Below, one piece after another: positions 3,087 to 52,646 of a stretch of 64,000 bases of DNA. The notes under the pieces are model-generated. The model ran no database searches. It was not told the DNA's origin and saw only the letters and a program-made list of their open reading frames with translations. How positions within the stretch are numbered: the first letter of the stretch is position 1; the number at the start of each line of letters is the position of its first letter. The stretch lies in sequence record PZ386978.1. One strand, written 5' to 3'. A program made the position numbers and the translations under genes. The stretch is from a phage.

Positions 3087-3586
3087 TGGCTGAAGTTATC
3101 TCTATTTCAAATGCTACACGAGTGCATTCGTATAGAGGTGTTCTTATTATCACTGACAAATTATCTGTAGAGGCTGGCTCAAGGGTCAGCCTTTCAGGTT
3201 ACGTAAGTGACGGTGGAACCTCTGACGTTTTCACTATTTGTAGGTTACTTGATGCTCCAATGAGTGGAAAACCGTTTATTTCAGGAAATTGTAGTGAAAT
3301 TGTTAAAATTCCATTTGACAGTTCATGCCTTTTGGGTGTAAAGTTATATAACTGCGAGAATAAACGTATCAATGTTAATAGCATTGAAGCCGCTTTCATT
3401 ACCCTTGACACTGCATTTCAATCTCCAATGACAGTTAATAAAGAAACAAACAGACTTGAATACATTTTTTCACAAAATGATTACAAAGTACTTGTCAAAG
3501 GCAAAGTATATGATATGATTGTAAATGTGGTAGATGAATCTGGTAACCATTCAACAGTCCTTAAACAAAAAGTAAGGTTTAATTAA
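3086..3586 (+). CDS. Hypothetical head-module protein
   Basis: 166 aa ORF, start overlaps portal stop; no recognisable motif. Confidence 0.5.
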   Translation: MAEVISISNATRVHSYRGVLIITDKLSVEAGSRVSLSGYVSDGGTSDVFTICRLLDAPMSGKPFISGNCSEIVKIPFDSSCLLGVKLYNCENKRINVNSIEAAFITLDTAFQSPMTVNKETNRLEYIFSQNDYKVLVKGKVYDMIVNVVDESGNHSTVLKQKVRFN

Positions 3587-40167: not shown

Positions 40168-41214
40168 ATGGAGAAGTACACATTAACAAAGCTTCCCGAT
40201 TCAGTTACACATGTTTTTATTGACTCTGACAGCATTGCCTATAAAGGTGCTTGTGTAGTTGAGAAAGCAAAATATAAATATGTCAATAAACTCACAGCAG
40301 AAGAATCTGATTCGTTTGATAATGCAAAAGATGCTGCAAGATGGTTAGCAGACCAGAGAATCCTTGTGGAAGAGCTTGGTCTGACATTTGATGAAGATGA
40401 ATGGGAAAGACAGACTTGGAAAGAAGCTAAGAGTGAAAAAGAAGCTATCATGGCTACTCAACAGGTGCTTCAGGAATGGCTTAAGGTTGTTGGTAAAGAA
40501 AGAACTTGGGTAGGTTATTTAACAGAGAAAGGTGTGCATAAACATAAAGACGTTAAAGGTCTTGAGCACCAATATCAAGGCAACCGTAAAGATGCTGTCA
40601 CACCAACACACCTAGTTGCTTGTCGTGAGTATCTTCTGTCAAGACCAGAGTTCAAACTAATTCTTGATGGGTTTGAAGCCGACTCTATCGTTATTGCTAA
40701 AGCTGAAAAGATGGGTAAAAAGGCTGCCTTAATGAGTATTGATAAAGACCTTCGCCAAGCTGAAGGAACTTACTGCATTGATATGACCTATGAAAAGTCA
40801 CCTTTGATTTTCATTGCTGATAACAACGTTGGTGAAATTTGGGATTGCCCAATAAAATCAACACCAAAAGCTAAGAAGACAGTTGGTGTAGGTTTTAAAT
40901 TCCTTTGTTATCAAGCTGTGGCTGGTGATAACGCGGATAATTATTTTGGTTTAAAGGGCGTTGGTAAGGCTACTGTAATGAAAGCCCTTGAAGGTAAAAC
41001 CACCTACAAAGAGTGTCTTGATGCAATTTATGAGCTTTATGCTAAGAAAGAGTCGTACACTTATGTCTCGTGGGATGGTCAAACAATTACCAGAACACCC
41101 TTAGAGTTAATGCAGCAACACTTTTTCTTAGCTTATCAGGAAAGAAACAAGAAAGACGATTTCACTTTTGATAAGTATGGGTGGACACCAAATGTTAACT
41201 CAACAAACTCTTAA
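40168..41214 (+). CDS. 5'-3' exonuclease / RNase H (FEN family)
   Basis: 348 aa; N-terminal VFIDSDSIAYK; helix-hairpin-helix-like GDNADNYFGLKGVGKATV. Confidence 0.75.
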   Translation: MEKYTLTKLPDSVTHVFIDSDSIAYKGACVVEKAKYKYVNKLTAEESDSFDNAKDAARWLADQRILVEELGLTFDEDEWERQTWKEAKSEKEAIMATQQVLQEWLKVVGKERTWVGYLTEKGVHKHKDVKGLEHQYQGNRKDAVTPTHLVACREYLLSRPEFKLILDGFEADSIVIAKAEKMGKKAALMSIDKDLRQAEGTYCIDMTYEKSPLIFIADNNVGEIWDCPIKSTPKAKKTVGVGFKFLCYQAVAGDNADNYFGLKGVGKATVMKALEGKTTYKECLDAIYELYAKKESYTYVSWDGQTITRTPLELMQQHFFLAYQERNKKDDFTFDKYGWTPNVNSTNS

Positions 41215-41692
41215 AGAGCACCTGCACTATGACCCCGAAACAGGGGTCTTTACTTGGTTAGTTGATAGAACAGGTAAGGCCAAAGCTGGCTCAGTAGCAG
41301 GTTTTAAACACCATAGCGGTTATATCTATATAAAACTCTTCGGAAAAAGATATGCAGCACACAGACTGGCATTCTTGTATATGAAAGGATACCTCCCAAA
41401 ATTTGTTGACCACAAGAATTGTATCAGACACGACAACTGGTTCGACAATTTGAGAGAGTGTAGCAGGTCAGACAACAACTGTAATGCAGTCAAAAGAAGA
41501 GATAATAAGTCTGGTGTGAAGGGTGTATATTACCACAAGCAAAGAGGTAGATGGGCTGCACAAGTTAAGCATAATAAAGTTTGCTACCATCTAGGCCTAT
41601 TTGACTCTGTTGCTGAGGCTGAAAAAGTTGTCAAAAAGAAAAGAGAAGAACTCCATAGAGAGTTTACAAATCACGGAGAAACTCATGAATGA
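41192..41692 (+). CDS. HNH homing endonuclease with AP2-like domain (paralogue of 31062..31590)
   Basis: MLTQQTLKEHLHYDPETGVFTW N-terminus; HNH segment HRLAFLYMKGYLPKFVDHKNCIRHDNWFDNL; AP2-like SGVKGVYYHKQRGRWAAQV; start trimmed to the ATG with a GGGTGGA ribosome-binding site. Confidence 0.8.
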   Translation: MLTQQTLKEHLHYDPETGVFTWLVDRTGKAKAGSVAGFKHHSGYIYIKLFGKRYAAHRLAFLYMKGYLPKFVDHKNCIRHDNWFDNLRECSRSDNNCNAVKRRDNKSGVKGVYYHKQRGRWAAQVKHNKVCYHLGLFDSVAEAEKVVKKKREELHREFTNHGETHE

Positions 41693-42189
41693 TTAAAGTT
41701 AAAGGTTTTGGGAGTTGCCCCACTTATGGTCACTGGATTTCACTATGTGGTGAAGTTGACCCAGCAAAGCACTTTGGTTTTGTCTACCTAGTGTACTGCA
41801 AAAAGACTGGACAGTACTATTTGGGTAAGAAGCAGCTTAACAGTGTGACCAAAAGAAAAGTTGCTGGGAAGACTCGGAAGAAGGTAGTCACTAAGGAGAG
41901 TGATTGGATGACTTACGAGACTTCTTCTGAGTATATTAAAAAAGATATTGATAGCTTTGGAAAAGAATTTTTTGACTTTTACATTATTCAAACCTACTAC
42001 ACAAAAGGTGGCCTAGTCTATGGTGAAGCAAACCTTCAACATAAATTCGATGTAATGACAAAAAGGATTGACTCGAAGCTCAGACTCTTCTACAATGCCA
42101 ATATTGCAGCAATTAAGTTTATTACTAAAGAAACTTATGAAGATGCTGAAAAAAGAATCCATAAGGTAATGAAAGCAAATTGTGCTTGA
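41689..42189 (+). CDS. GIY-YIG family endonuclease (candidate)
   Basis: 166 aa; N-terminal FGFVYLVYCKKTGQYYLGKK resembles the GIY-(10-11 aa)-YIG motif. Confidence 0.55.
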   Translation: MIKVKGFGSCPTYGHWISLCGEVDPAKHFGFVYLVYCKKTGQYYLGKKQLNSVTKRKVAGKTRKKVVTKESDWMTYETSSEYIKKDIDSFGKEFFDFYIIQTYYTKGGLVYGEANLQHKFDVMTKRIDSKLRLFYNANIAAIKFITKETYEDAEKRIHKVMKANCA

Positions 42190-47486: not shown

Positions 47487-47728
47487 TGACTTATGTAATT
47501 TACTCCAAAACTGGATGCCCTCAATGTGAGACTGCAAAGAATTTTGCAAAAGCTCGTGGTATTGAACATGTTGTGAGAATGTTAGGGCAGGACTATGAGC
47601 TATCAGACCTGATGGATATTGCACAGATGCCAGTTCGTCAGATGCCATTCATCATGAAAACTGATGGGCAAAACCTAAAACCTGTTGGAACGCTACAGAA
47701 TTTTATGGCAGAGGTGAATAATGCTTAA
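47486..47728 (+). CDS. Glutaredoxin/thioredoxin-like protein (NrdH/NrdC-like)
   Basis: 80 aa; CPQC redox motif (YSKTGCPQCETAK). Confidence 0.75.
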   Translation: MTYVIYSKTGCPQCETAKNFAKARGIEHVVRMLGQDYELSDLMDIAQMPVRQMPFIMKTDGQNLKPVGTLQNFMAEVNNA

Positions 47729-47927
47729 ACGCCTTTGGGAAGGTTTGGTTGTTGATGCACCAGCTATTGTGATTGGTATGCTTATTGTTAACCTATTTAC
47801 TGACTTTGAACAAGGTTCATTGTTTGGAGCCATGTTACTATGGGTTATCTTTGAAATATTAGAGATACAGTTAGGTATCACTGAAAAATTAAGAGAACTC
47901 TTTTCGAAGTTTTCTAAAAAGATTTAA
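47721..47927 (+). CDS. Small membrane protein
   Basis: 68 aa with two hydrophobic segments. Confidence 0.4.
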   Translation: MLKRLWEGLVVDAPAIVIGMLIVNLFTDFEQGSLFGAMLLWVIFEILEIQLGITEKLRELFSKFSKKI

Positions 47928-47934
47928 AATGAAA

Positions 47935-47956
47935 GGGTCTCTTCGGAGACCTTTTT
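47935..47956 (+). terminator. Intrinsic terminator with UUCG tetraloop
   Basis: GGTCTC-TTCG-GAGACC followed by TTTTT. Confidence 0.65.
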
Positions 47957-47975
47957 AGCATGTAAAGGGGCAATA

Positions 47976-49172
47976 ATGAACAAAGTACAGATTATTAAAA
48001 AGAACGGCTCACTCGAAGAACCTGATATCAAAAAAGTTTTAGCAGCAGTCACAAAGTCAGCTAATAGGGTTGGGTATAAAGAACTCCCACCAGATGTTAC
48101 CCAAGCTCTTGAGTCAGCATTTATGAGGATTCTGGTAAAATCCACTAAGCAGAATAATTTACTCATTTCAGTAAATGATATTCACAGTATTGTTGAGGGT
48201 GCTTTGGCAGAAGTCAATCACGAGATTTATGAGTCTTACTCAACATATAGAAATTACCGTAAAGAAGTTGCTCAGAATTGGGATGAGCTTTATCAGAAGA
48301 CCAAAGATACACTCTTCTTAGGTGACCGAGAAAATGCTAATTTTGACAGCAGTTTAATTTCTACAAAAGGTTCAATTATTCGTGGTTATCTGACTAAAGA
48401 AATCTTTAAACAGTACCATTTAACACCAGAGGAACTTGAAGCCATTGAAAAAGGGTTTATCTATATCCATGATTTAAGAGACCTAATTTTTGGTGGTATC
48501 AACTGTTGCCTGTTTGACATTGGTAAAGTCCTGAAAGGTGGCTTTGAAATGTCTGGCATTGAATATTGTGAACCAAAGTCTGTGCTGTCGGCCTTACAGG
48601 TTATTGGTGACGTAGTTCTTTCAGCAACTGCACAGCAATTTGGTGGCTTTACTTTAGCAGAGATTGATAAGGTACTCGTACCGTATGCTAAGAAGTCTCT
48701 ACGCTATCATGCTGAGAAAGCAGCATCTTATGGTATTCCTAAAGAACATTACCACAATTATGTCATGGAGCAGTTACAGATTGAGCTAACTCAAGGTTTC
48801 CAGTCACTTGAAATGAAACTCAATACTGTGCCTTGTAGCCGTGGGGATTTTGCATTCACAACTTTGACATTCGGGTTACTTGACTCAGATATGTCCAATG
48901 AAGATAACCGACTGCAATATATGATTGCAAGTACTCTCCTAGATGTTCGTATGAATGGACAAGGTAAGAGCAAGAAGCCTGTTGTATTTCCTAAACTGGT
49001 TTATATTTATGACCAGAAGAGACACGATGAGAATATCTGTCAAGGACACCTGTACAGTAAAGCTATTGAGTGTTGCTCTAAAGCAATGTATCCAGATTTC
49101 TTAAGTGTATCTGGTCATGGTGCTGTAGCAGAGGCTTTTGAGCGTTCTGGCAAGGTTATTTCACCGATGGGT
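47976..49172 (+). CDS. nrdD: Anaerobic ribonucleotide reductase, exon 1
   Basis: 399 codons ending ...ISPMG; the in-frame stop at 49173 is the first intron triplet; last exon base is U. Confidence 0.85.
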
Positions 49173-49914
49173 TAACAAGCTCTATAGCTCATCTAAAACG
49201 TGCCTAAACAGGGAAACTCTACAGGTGTAGACAATCCTGTGCTAAATGATGTACGATGTAAGAAACTATATGACATAGGAGTATTACATGCCAAATTATC
49301 ATGTTACTGAAGACGGAAGAGTCTTTAGGAAAAATGGTGTAGAACTTAAGCAGTGGAAATCCAACACTGGGTATATGAAAGTGAGGTTTTACGGTAAGAA
49401 GAATCGTGACATGTATGTTCATAGGTTAGTTGCTGAGAAATATGTACCTAACCCGAACAATCTTCCAATTGTAAAACACAAAGATGATAACAAACTGAAT
49501 AACCATGCTTCTAACTTAGAATGGGGAACTCATTCTGAGAATGTTAAAGAAGGTTATGAAAATGGTTGCTACAAGTTTTGTAAGCGTTCATATGCTGTGA
49601 AGGCTACACACAAAGTAACAAAAGAAGTTATTGTTGCGAACTCGATACGAGAGTTGTCCAAGATGCTTGGGTATAATCGCAAGACTATCTCTTCAATACT
49701 GAAGGGTGTAAAAGAATATAATAACTTTGAACATGAATTTGAATACATCTAAATGCCGAACGACTAACCGTGATGAATGTAGCGGTGTAGGGTCAAGCGA
49801 CTCGAAATGGTACGCTACTTAGAAATAAGTAGAAGATATAGTCTGGACTTACTGGCGACAGTAAGCAGCTTGAATAAAGCGGGGTAAGCTTAGCGAACTT
49901 ACCTGAACAACAAG
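49173..49914 (+). mobile_element. Group I intron in nrdD carrying an HNH homing endonuclease gene
   Basis: Exon 1 ends in U and the intron ends in G (...AACAAG); intron 3' region contains AGATATAGTCTGGAC; joining the exons gives ...SPMG|CRAFLSPY.... Confidence 0.7.
49288..49752 (+). CDS. Intron-encoded HNH homing endonuclease
   Basis: 154 aa; HNH segment HRLVAEKYVPNPNNLPIVKHKDDNKLNNHASNLEWGTHSEN. Confidence 0.8.
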   Translation: MPNYHVTEDGRVFRKNGVELKQWKSNTGYMKVRFYGKKNRDMYVHRLVAEKYVPNPNNLPIVKHKDDNKLNNHASNLEWGTHSENVKEGYENGCYKFCKRSYAVKATHKVTKEVIVANSIRELSKMLGYNRKTISSILKGVKEYNNFEHEFEYI

Positions 49915-50862
49915 TGTAGAGCATTTTTATCACCATACCATAACGAACATGGTGAAGAGTTTTATGTAGGTCGTGCTAATATTGGTGCTGTATCTTTGAA
50001 CTTACCAATGATTTACCAGTATTCTAAAGAGAATGGCTTAGATTTCTGGAAAGAGCTTGATAAGTACCTAGAAATGATTCGTAGTTTCCACAAGAAACGC
50101 TATGAAATGATTGCCAATATGCCAGCAAGTTCTAATCCTCTTGCATTTACACAAGGTGGTCTGTACAAAGGAACTAAGAAGCCTACTGACAGGGTTGGTT
50201 GGGATATTGTGAAGTCCTTCACAGCTTCTTTTGGGGTTACTGCGCTTGATGAGCTATCTGTTCTTGCTGAAGGTAAACGACTTCATGAAGTTGGAAGCTA
50301 TAGTTTTGCATATGATGTTCTGGCATACATCAACATGAAAACTGAAGAGTTTAAGAACGAAGATGGCTTCTTGTATGCGGTATATGGCACTCCAGCAGAA
50401 TCACTTTGTGGAACTCAGTTAAAACAGTTCAGAGATATGTTTGGCGTTATTAAAGGTGTCTCTGACAAGGAATACTTTACAAACAGTTTCCATATGAATG
50501 TTGCAGCAGACATCTCACCATTTGAGAAGCAGGACTTAGAAGAACCATTCTTCCATATCTGTAGAGGTGGCAGAATCCAGTATGTCAGGGTAGCTAACCC
50601 AGAAAACTTAACAGCACTTAAGAGTTGTATTACGAGAGGTATGTTGAAAGGTTTCTATCAGGGACTTAACTTTGACTTAGCAATCTGTGAACATTGTGGT
50701 AACAGACCAAAGGCTGATGTTGAAGAATGTGAGGTTTGTCATTCACATGACATCTCTGTGATTAACAGGGTGTGCGGGTACTTGTCATTCACAAAAATTA
50801 AAGGTCAGTCTCGAATGAATGATGCAAAAATCGCTGAGATTCGTGACAGGATTTCTATGTAA
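49915..50862 (+). CDS. nrdD: Anaerobic ribonucleotide reductase, exon 2 (glycyl-radical domain)
   Basis: Open frame from CRAFLSPY...; C-terminal glycyl-radical motif RVCGY; the ORF-track start at 49996 is a TTG inside the exon. Confidence 0.85.
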   Translation, partial: CRAFLSPYHNEHGEEFYVGRANIGAVSLNLPMIYQYSKENGLDFWKELDKYLEMIRSFHKKRYEMIANMPASSNPLAFTQGGLYKGTKKPTDRVGWDIVKSFTASFGVTALDELSVLAEGKRLHEVGSYSFAYDVLAYINMKTEEFKNEDGFLYAVYGTPAESLCGTQLKQFRDMFGVIKGVSDKEYFTNSFHMNVAADISPFEKQDLEEPFFHICRGGRIQYVRVANPENLTALKSCITRGMLKGFYQGLNFDLAICEHCGNRPKADVEECEVCHSHDISVINRVCGYLSFTKIKGQSRMNDAKIAEIRDRISM

Positions 50863-50872
50863 AACTTGACAA

Positions 50873-50909
50873 GGTGATGTGGGTCTTGATAGGCTTACAT
50901 CACCTTTTT
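50873..50909 (+). terminator. Terminator-like hairpin after nrdD
   Basis: Stem GGTGATGT / ACATCACC, 16-nt loop, then TTTTT; overlaps a TTGACAAGGTG motif. Confidence 0.45.
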
Positions 50910-50925
50910 ATTTGGAGTTACACTA

Positions 50926-51260
50926 TGGACTTGTGGCTTTATGTAGCAGTTTGTGGGATTGTATGTCTGATAATCTTATTTATTCTTGGAGTAATGCGAT
51001 TTAGAGACATCATACAGTCAGATTTTTTGCCTGAGTTTGCCATGATAGTTGGGGTTATTACCCTTTGTGTCTTGGCAGTGTTCTATTCATACAAAACTGT
51101 GATATGGATGGAGGAAAACAATTGTGTAAAAACTCATCAGCATCGTGAGGTTACTCATTTTGTGAGTGTACTTAGTGGTAGCACCACTATACTTGTCCCA
51201 CAAACTTCTGTAGAGTATCTTTACACATGTGATAATGGTAAAACTATATGGTGGAATTAA
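50926..51260 (+). CDS. Membrane protein (hypothetical)
   Basis: Start chosen at ATG with GGAG ribosome-binding site; two hydrophobic segments. Confidence 0.45.
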
Positions 51261-52160: not shown

Positions 52161-52646
52161 ATGAATTACATGGAGATTAGACCATTTGACACAGCTAATG
52201 GTGAAGGGGTTCGTGTAAGCCTCTTCGTAGCTGGTTGTAAGCATCACTGTGAAGGCTGCTTTAACAGGGAGTCTTGGAAGTTTAATGCTGGTAAAGTGTT
52301 CACTTATGCAAACCTATATGGAATCATCCAGTTAATGGGTGATGATGCTGTCAGTGGGTTGTCAATACTTGGTGGAGAACCTCTGGATGATAGAAACATT
52401 CAAGAGGTTACCAACATATGCAAACGTATTAAAACCGTTTACCCAGAAAAATCTATCTGGCTCTGGACAGGTTTTCAGTTACATGAAAAAATTCACCTTG
52501 ATGTGATGAAATATGTTGACGTGGTGATTGATGGCAAGTATGATTCATCTAAACCAACAGTTAAACCATATCGTGGTTCTGATAACCAAAACCTCTGGAG
52601 AAAAGAGTATGGGTGGCAAGGTGATTGTCAGTGGAGAGCAGAGTGA
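52161..52646 (+). CDS. nrdG: Anaerobic ribonucleotide reductase activating protein (radical SAM)
   Basis: 161 aa; CxxxCxxC motif CKHHCEGC. Confidence 0.85.
   Translation: MNYMEIRPFDTANGEGVRVSLFVAGCKHHCEGCFNRESWKFNAGKVFTYANLYGIIQLMGDDAVSGLSILGGEPLDDRNIQEVTNICKRIKTVYPEKSIWLWTGFQLHEKIHLDVMKYVDVVIDGKYDSSKPTVKPYRGSDNQNLWRKEYGWQGDCQWRAE

Follow-up and report, generated by a model that had tools for sequence, protein, structure and literature searches.

A putative mobile group I intron with an HNH endonuclease gene in its P6a loop interrupts nrdD next to the catalytic cysteine codon in a Felix O1-like phage

Among the closest described relatives of the element reported here are two group I introns of phage T4 and an endonuclease of phage SPO1. 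The intron of T4 nrdD (sunY) lies inside the codon for Tyr180 (AYE/YEVNT, the slash marking the intron), 110 codons upstream of that for Cys290. It has no paired region P2, possesses P7.1 and P7.2, and encodes the GIY-YIG endonuclease I-TevII 3' of P9. The T4 td intron, in the gene for thymidylate synthase, has a P2 hairpin and a short P7.1, starts with UAA as its first three bases, and holds in the loop of P6a the open reading frame (ORF) of the GIY-YIG enzyme I-TevI, the last codons of which form part of P6a. I-HmuI is an intron-encoded HNH nicking endonuclease of phage SPO1, a Bacillus phage, where it is encoded in the group I intron of the DNA polymerase gene. We analyzed a 64,000-nucleotide (nt) stretch of phage DNA (sequence record PZ386978.1, one strand, 5' to 3'; hereafter the window) in which nrdD is interrupted by 742 nt. 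The insert is very probably a mobile, self-splicing group I intron of subgroup IA2 (T4 sunY/td type), located between the codons for Gly399 and Cys400 of NrdD and carrying an I-HmuI-like HNH endonuclease gene in its P6a loop.

On sequence the window is assigned to Felixounavirus, and the region was 95-96% identical to many Felixounavirus (Felix O1-like) genomes, with Escherichia phage Andreotti as the best match. The element has already been recognised at annotation level and is an ordinary representative of T4-type group I introns with HNH homing endonucleases. The Felix O1 genome paper reported no introns and 22 transfer RNAs (tRNAs) (PMC3185647), and its report of no introns holds for Felix O1 itself, whose allele is of the intron-less type. 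For UAB_Phi87 and its relatives, Bardina et al. 2016 wrote of a 'split gene (nrdD)' with a homing endonuclease between its parts and did not speak of an intron (PMC4837284), and the SPJ41 paper listed 'two introns' among predicted non-coding RNAs with no detail (PMC9951933). The same element is found in Bas63 (Escherichia phage JohannRWettstein, MZ501086), which is 95.4% identical over 2887 nt. The Bas63 record gives nrdD as a two-piece joined coding sequence (CDS) over the exact span with an embedded putative homing endonuclease, and the S5 table of the BASEL paper gives 'introns: 1' for this phage (PMC8594841). Neither the record nor the BASEL paper says to which class the intron belongs, gives its guide sequence, relates its site to that in T4 or reports a splicing test. 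Searches of the literature for a Felixounavirus with a group I intron found nothing, and no searchable paper dealt with the class, guide sequence, site or splicing of this intron. Most public Felixounavirus records give nrdD as two CDSs and, among the records examined, only BASEL uses a join. In the records checked, the second CDS starts at an internal ATG that corresponds to window position 50008 (Andreotti), and UAB_Phi87 lists a second fragment of 284 amino acids (aa).

The split gene is nrdD, and its parts are as follows.

47976-49172, plus strand: nrdD exon 1, 399 codons, with the ATP-cone and the N-terminal half of NrdD; its 3' codon is GGU (Gly399).
49173-49914, plus strand: intervening sequence of 742 nt, the predicted group I intron.
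49915-50862, plus strand: nrdD exon 2, 315 codons and the stop; its first codon is UGU (Cys400), and it carries the glycyl-radical Gly687 (RVCGY).

The coordinates given in the original prediction for both exons, the 742-nt insert and an ORF at 49288-49752 held to the base. GGT (Gly399) at 49170-49172 is followed by an in-frame TAA at 49173-49175, and the NrdD frame picks up again at 49915 with TGT AGA GCA TTT (CRAF) and runs to the stop at 50860-50862. Position 49172 is T and position 49914 is G, so that exon 1 ends in U and the insert in G as had been proposed. Joining 47976-49172 to 49915-50862 gave a protein of 714 aa with a single, terminal stop. The predicted length was therefore right, whereas the RVCGY motif, which had been placed at the very end of the product, lies 27 residues from the C-terminus. 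At the RNA level the predicted ligated junction consists of the 3' end of exon 1, CCGAUGGGU, joined to the start of exon 2, UGUAGAGC.

The two exons are complementary parts of one Pfam NRDD match, exon 1 covering positions 1-250 of the profile and exon 2 positions 264-560, and exon 2 also matched Gly_radical. Joined NrdD was compared to solved structures and matched PDB 9D3X (expectation value, E = 1e-76) and the T4 NrdD structure (E = 2.5e-74). The residue alignment, read for 9D3X, was gap-free over SPMG/CRAFLS, bearing out the continuous reading ISPMG/CRAFLSPY that had been proposed across PMGCR. Cys400, within PMGC, aligned with T4 Cys290 and Gly687 aligned with T4 Gly580; these T4 residues and their equivalents we take to be the thiyl-radical cysteine and the glycyl-radical glycine of NrdD. 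The junction had been placed in the active-site region, and the equivalent of T4 Cys290 does lie directly at it.

A site adjoining the catalytic Cys is typical of inteins, which are known in phage ribonucleotide reductases, and removal of the insert at the protein level was therefore considered. The sequence refutes this explanation. The first three bases of the insert are an in-frame UAA, and 742 nt do not divide into whole codons (742 mod 3 = 1), hence it is out of frame. The endonuclease ORF uses a separate frame with its own start, and Pfam found no intein domains.

The gene might also work in pieces, a free-standing endonuclease gene having split nrdD into two polypeptides that assemble with no RNA splicing. 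Most GenBank records, with two nrdD CDSs annotated around a homing endonuclease gene, and Bardina et al., who describe only a split gene interrupted by an endonuclease (PMC4837284), would agree with this, and nrdA of Aeromonas phage Aeh1, split by mobE, is a precedent (PMC3653736). However, the annotated second CDS starting from ATG 50008 drops 31 codons including that for Cys400. The frame entering exon 2 is closed by TAG at 49891-49893, no ATG, GTG or TTG start is found in the exon-2 frame between this TAG and 49996, and no Shine-Dalgarno sequence is available upstream for separate translation of exon 2. With no start codon before 49996, exon 2 including Cys400 is not translatable alone. In addition, the flanks of the ORF (115 and 162 nt) form a group I core with a guide complementary to both exons, and inserts lacking the ORF persist among relatives and make no sense as endonuclease insertions. 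Two separate functional polypeptides, named as the alternative when the intron was first proposed, are counted out on these sequence grounds, exon 2 alone being without Cys400, and we consider it very improbable that NrdD is assembled from pieces.

To return to the intron, its identity was evaluated using RNA-family and nucleotide searches. In E-value mode Rfam RF00028 matched 49685-49865 with 33.1 bits (E = 1.7e-6 when 901 nt were searched and 1.2e-4 for the same match in the whole-window search), and a second RF00028 fragment at 49208-49305 covered model positions 60-139. The score of the window is below the RF00028 gathering score of 50 because the ORF splits the core and with it the model. 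The ORF-less alleles of REP5 and RPN213, with ~97% identity to the window wherever sequence is shared, scored 53.6 and 60.4 bits. As a control, the T4 td intron, which is experimentally established and likewise holds its ORF in the P6a loop, scored 40.3 bits in the permissive E-value search, and the td and window introns are thus alike in having sub-threshold Rfam scores due to an ORF. The T4 nrdD intron, which has a contiguous core, scored 105.3 bits. Using BLAST, the 3' 160 nt of the intron matched the 3' half of td with ~71% identity, and the 5' core matched the T4-type (sunY) nrdD intron of a Mosigvirus with 87.5%. When the ORF was trimmed, the core showed 74-75% identity to T4-type (sunY) nrdD introns and 67% to td. 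By these comparisons we classify the insert as a group I intron of subgroup IA2, without P2, and place its core closest to the T4 nrdD (sunY) type.

The predicted pairings, apart from the P6a loop given further below, are these.

49179-49193, plus strand: internal guide, 15 contiguous nt made up of the P10 strand and the P1 strand.
49179-49186 with 49915-49922, plus strand: P10, guide GCUCUAUA with exon 2 UGUAGAGC, 8/8 pairs.
49187-49193 with 49166-49172, plus strand: P1, guide GCUCAUC with exon 1 GAUGGGU, 7/7 pairs, with the U49172•G49187 wobble.
49199-49253, plus strand: 5' half of the core, with P3 (49199-49204), P4 (49208-49212), P5 (49218-49222/49227-49231), P4' (49236-49240), P6 (49241-49242) and P6a (49248-49253).
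49744-49914, plus strand: 3' half of the core and the peripheral domain, beginning with P6a' (49744-49749) and P6' (49755-49756).
49762-49766/49839-49843, plus strand: P7, GACUA/UAGUC.
49767-49770/49783-49786, plus strand: the IA2-specific P7.1, with P7.2 at 49790-49794/49799-49803.
49809-49814, plus strand: P3', followed by P8 (49815-49821/49826-49832, GAAA loop) and J8/7 (49833-49838, AAGAUA).
49848-49854/49859-49865, plus strand: P9 (GCGA loop), followed by P9.1 (49868-49871/49877-49880) and P9.2 (49883-49888/49898-49903).
Up to 49914, plus strand: intron 3' tail UGAACAACAAG, with G49914 as the last base.

The in-frame UAA makes up intron bases 1-3. As the P10 and P1 segments of the guide abut, one 15-nt guide aligns both exons. 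This 15/15 contiguous pairing with the exon junction was matched by only 2/200,000 shuffles of the first 40 intron bases and is more than chance. The stretch AGATATAGTCTGGAC at 49835-49849, picked out earlier as resembling the group I core, agrees with the Rfam group I consensus gAAGAUAUAGUCu (J8/7-P7'). The helix model runs from P1 through P9.2, and most of its helices (P1, P4/P5, P7, P7.1, P7.2, P8, P9, P9.1 and P9.2) were recovered by energy folds of separate pieces. The group I identity put forward in the original prediction is thus upheld by the RF00028 match, by the P1 and P10 pairings with the U•G wobble, and by G49914 as the last base.

Helices were also compared across eight introns, those of the window, RPN213, Vibrio phage 355E48.1, Phapecoctavirus nieznany, T4 nrdD, SHSML-52-1 nrdD, T4 td and Aeromonas phage phiA047. 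Helices were set by hand for each sequence, as a MAFFT alignment of the eight ORF-trimmed introns had P5 and P8 out of register. Over the ten-helix model 415/416 pairs were canonical, and compensatory double changes were detected at 26 of the 48 shared helix positions, including all positions of P7.1 and 3/5 positions of P7.2. We take this comparison as corroboration of the model and not as independent proof.

The endonuclease gene and its surroundings occupy the middle of the intron.

49254-49743, plus strand: P6a loop, occupied by the HNH ORF.
49277-49281, plus strand: Shine-Dalgarno sequence AGGAG of the HNH ORF, 6 nt 5' of the ATG.
49288-49752, plus strand: predicted intron-encoded HNH homing endonuclease gene, 154 aa, Pfam HNH_3.

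The last codons of the ORF, UAC AUC UAA, are also the 3' strand of P6a. The encoded protein matched Pfam HNH_3 (PF13392) with E = 2.7e-10 and PHROG 59 with E = 1e-45, a very large phage HNH family found in 1049 phage records by tblastn. Against the structure of I-HmuI (PDB 1U3E) it gave E = 1.1e-10 with the HNH motif kept, and residues 3-142 aligned with residues 12-160, amounting to homology over the whole length. The two proteins are alike in the HNH motif, in a C-terminal helix-turn-helix-like region and in being encoded in a phage group I intron; they differ in host gene and in target and are ~30% identical. On this homology the ORF is classed as an I-HmuI-like HNH homing endonuclease, in agreement with the 154-aa HNH endonuclease first proposed. 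We also looked for a hairpin sequestering the ribosome-binding site, as in the T4 introns, but the fold of 49241-49310 was no better than shuffles (z = -0.04). Scanning 47700-51100 for sigma-70 promoters returned 7 sites against 9.9 expected, with no promoter for the endonuclease gene above chance.

Comparison of relatives demonstrated three states of nrdD within the genus, namely intron-less, with an ORF-less insert (292-316 nt), and with the 742-nt ORF-containing insert. An uninterrupted nrdD of 2145 nt is present in OPT-SAL01, Ro111lw and Mooglevirus ESh22. The intron-less alleles read CCGATGGGT followed by TGY AGR GC, i.e. GGT/TGY at the insert point of the window, and share an identical junction, so that precise removal of the insert restores the uninterrupted host gene. 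Ambiguity of the boundaries is limited to one shared T, and the insert was fixed at 49173-49914 because this is the only reading with a terminal G and so the only one that fits group I chemistry. ORF-less inserts measured 316 nt in REP5 (locus positions 2001-2316) and 292 nt in RPN213 (2001-2292). By a rough BLAST tally the insert contained the ORF in ~61 records and was of the short form in ~32 (from 93 records with query coverage of 80% or more), and ~129 of the 222 records holding the junction were intron-less. In REP5 the Shine-Dalgarno sequence survives, as do ATG CCA AAT and the nine final ORF codons, which make up a 12-codon mini-ORF (MPNNFEYEFEYI), and the short form of RPN213 is also without the start region of the ORF. 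The ORF-less forms are internal deletions of the long form within the HNH gene.

Loss of the ORF from about a third of intron-bearing genomes could also indicate a dead relic, an intron that no longer splices and leaves nrdD a pseudogene in carrier phages. In addition, splicing is a prediction from sequence, and nrdD is dispensable in aerobic laboratory growth. However, the exons are open, and both are under purifying selection in the joined frame, with synonymous changes far exceeding non-synonymous changes in five intron-bearing alleles. Bas63 differed from the window at 89 synonymous and 7 non-synonymous codons, and Andreotti at 80 and 11. The same synonymous excess is seen in intron-less alleles. 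Core helices and guide pairings are intact, with 93-98% identity over ~90 genomes. The activase gene is kept as well, and with nrdG present the split nrdD is expected to be functional. A relic is hardly credible in view of these observations. The sites immediately downstream of nrdD are the following.

50871-50906, plus strand: terminator-like hairpin and T-run, directly 3' of nrdD.
52161-52646, plus strand: nrdG, encoding the NrdD activase (Fer4_12, E = 1.6e-42; Radical_SAM).

With a working intron as the reading pursued here, the alleles also carry possible signs of homing. In the first 60 nt of exon 2 the intron-less alleles had 11-12 differences from the window and the intron-bearing alleles 1-3, and the overall divergence of the intron-less alleles from the window was 6-7%. 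The last 60 nt of exon 1 were nearly invariant in all alleles compared. Either a short one-sided co-conversion tract or divergence of the target site would produce the pattern in exon 2. This intron-linked polymorphism is also the one indirect hint that the HNH protein may nick or cut intron-less alleles at a specific site. The coexistence of ORF-containing, ORF-less and intron-less alleles is what a homing cycle predicts.

The intron of the window resembles that of T4 nrdD in its host gene, in the absence of P2, in the presence of P7.1 and P7.2, in its guide (GCUCAUC, compared to GCUCAUG in T4) and in an identical P7.1 loop (UGAUGAAUGUA). It differs in encoding an HNH protein in the P6a loop and not I-TevII 3' of P9. 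It also lies elsewhere in the gene, between the equivalents of T4 codons 289 and 290 and immediately 5' of the Cys400 codon, and as the T4 nrdD site differs the intron of the window is a separate insertion. Orthology with the T4 nrdD intron and its I-TevII insertion was accordingly rejected, both for the other site and for an HNH in place of a GIY-YIG enzyme. With td the window intron shares the ORF in the P6a loop, the last ORF codons as part of P6a and the initial UAA; it is unlike td in P2, in the length of P7.1, in host gene and in endonuclease family.

Identical insertion points (GGU/UGY, MG/CR) were found in nrdD of Phapecoctavirus nieznany and Vibrio phage 355E48.1. The cores of these introns are 72-75% identical to that of the window, and their P6a holds a homologous HNH ORF, 48% identical in nieznany and 39% in 355E48.1. 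In contrast to this likeness, their host phage lineages are unrelated, and their nrdD is annotated only as fragments. The guides pair with their own exons, 9/9 + 8/8 in Vibrio 355E48.1, where the P10 guide GAUUGGCA pairs 8/8 with UGCCGAUC, and 8/8 + 5/5 in nieznany. When P10 guides were cross-combined between same-site introns only 5-6 of 8 pairs formed. These matched guide differences are covariation between intron and host gene.

As a separate observation, 'part 2' and 'part 3' of nrdD in Vibrio 355E48.1 are in the same frame and are split by a single in-frame TAA (QKIDI, stop, SELQPLALGGHISYIEE) at locus ~3331-3333. This TAA could have arisen by nonsense mutation or sequencing error, or could be read through, and is not a second intron.

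Aeromonas phage phiA047 has a related ORF-less group I intron at locus ~2425-2682, with 73% core identity and the guide GGUCAUC, interrupting a region that its record gives as two neighbouring CDSs, each a 'hypothetical protein'. The 5' exons of the window (AUGGGU), T4 nrdD (AUGAGU) and phiA047 (AUGGCU) all end in AUG-N-N-U and the guides are nearly the same. A single intron lineage that spread ectopically to similar sites could account for these resemblances.

We tentatively extend this to a history for the intron at PMG/C, which we regard as possible and somewhat more doubtful than not. It would be a distinct, horizontally mobile lineage of ectopic sunY-type origin that later gained an HNH gene and was spread across phages by nick-initiated homing. 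A sunY-type intron would have reverse spliced into a second nrdD site, the 5' exon being AUGGGU here and AUGAGU at the T4 site with the guide GCUCAU in both. An I-HmuI-type HNH gene would have been acquired in P6a at a later step. Spread through Felixounavirus, Phapecoctavirus and Vibrio myoviruses would then have left the one-sided exon-2 co-conversion tract of ~55 nt.

The present-day cycle that we propose follows the known chemistry of the family. nrdD would be transcribed as one pre-messenger RNA, in which the guide at 49179-49193 would form P1 with the last bases of exon 1, including the U49172 wobble, and P10 with the first bases of exon 2. An exogenous guanosine in the P7 binding site would attack after U49172, and the freed 3'-OH of exon 1 would attack after G49914, ligating the exons into messenger RNA for the 714-aa NrdD. 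On unspliced RNA ribosomes would halt at the UAA formed by the first three intron bases, and translation of the HNH protein would start from a Shine-Dalgarno sequence of its own. As expected from its likeness to I-HmuI, this protein would nick or cut nrdD of a co-infecting phage that lacks the intron, close to the point of insertion, and repair from the intron-bearing allele would copy both the intron and a short stretch of exon 2.

Several points weigh against the reading of a mobile, self-splicing intron. Splicing, the activity and target of the endonuclease, and homing are predictions. They build on what the sequences show directly, namely where the insert begins and ends, its match to the RNA family, its pairings, the family of the endonuclease, the polymorphism among alleles and purifying selection on both exons. 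At the Rfam gathering threshold the whole window gave no match, its score lying below that cutoff. The fold energy z-scores were modest (-1.2 to -1.8) and count as consistency evidence only. The helix comparison leans toward the model because it was curated by hand from the same sequences, and the co-conversion signal comes from a small sample of five comparison alleles. Even so, we consider this reading very probable.

Other features of the window and of matching records were also noted. Upstream of the nrdA-nrdB-grx-nrdD-nrdG cluster lie two adjacent, apparently free-standing homing endonuclease genes (41168-42189).

41168-41692: HNH_3 + AP2 homing endonuclease gene, overlapping the next gene by 4 nt.
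41689-42189: SegE-like GIY-YIG homing endonuclease gene.

ARAGORN detected no tRNA genes in window positions 1-64000, and the tRNA cluster of Felix O1 type presumably lies outside the 64-kb stretch. Among records named 'Campylobacter phage', MG065664 (A132), MG065672 (A141), MG065662 (A142) and MG065639 (A150), some match this E. coli/Salmonella Felixounavirus nrdD at 98%, and for others the match is to the intron and HNH gene of the Phapecoctavirus type. Such records are probably mislabelled or derived from mixed samples.

No new principle is involved in this element. Recognising the intron restores one 714-aa gene in most of the ~90 genomes now annotated with two nrdD fragments, the second of which is without the catalytic Cys. 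It is also a further documented case of a known tendency: in genes of nucleotide metabolism, the codons that group I introns and their endonucleases target are the most conserved, catalytic ones. With three allelic states in one genus, the Felixounavirus nrdD locus would be a convenient natural system for the homing cycle and for co-conversion by an HNH (nicking) endonuclease.

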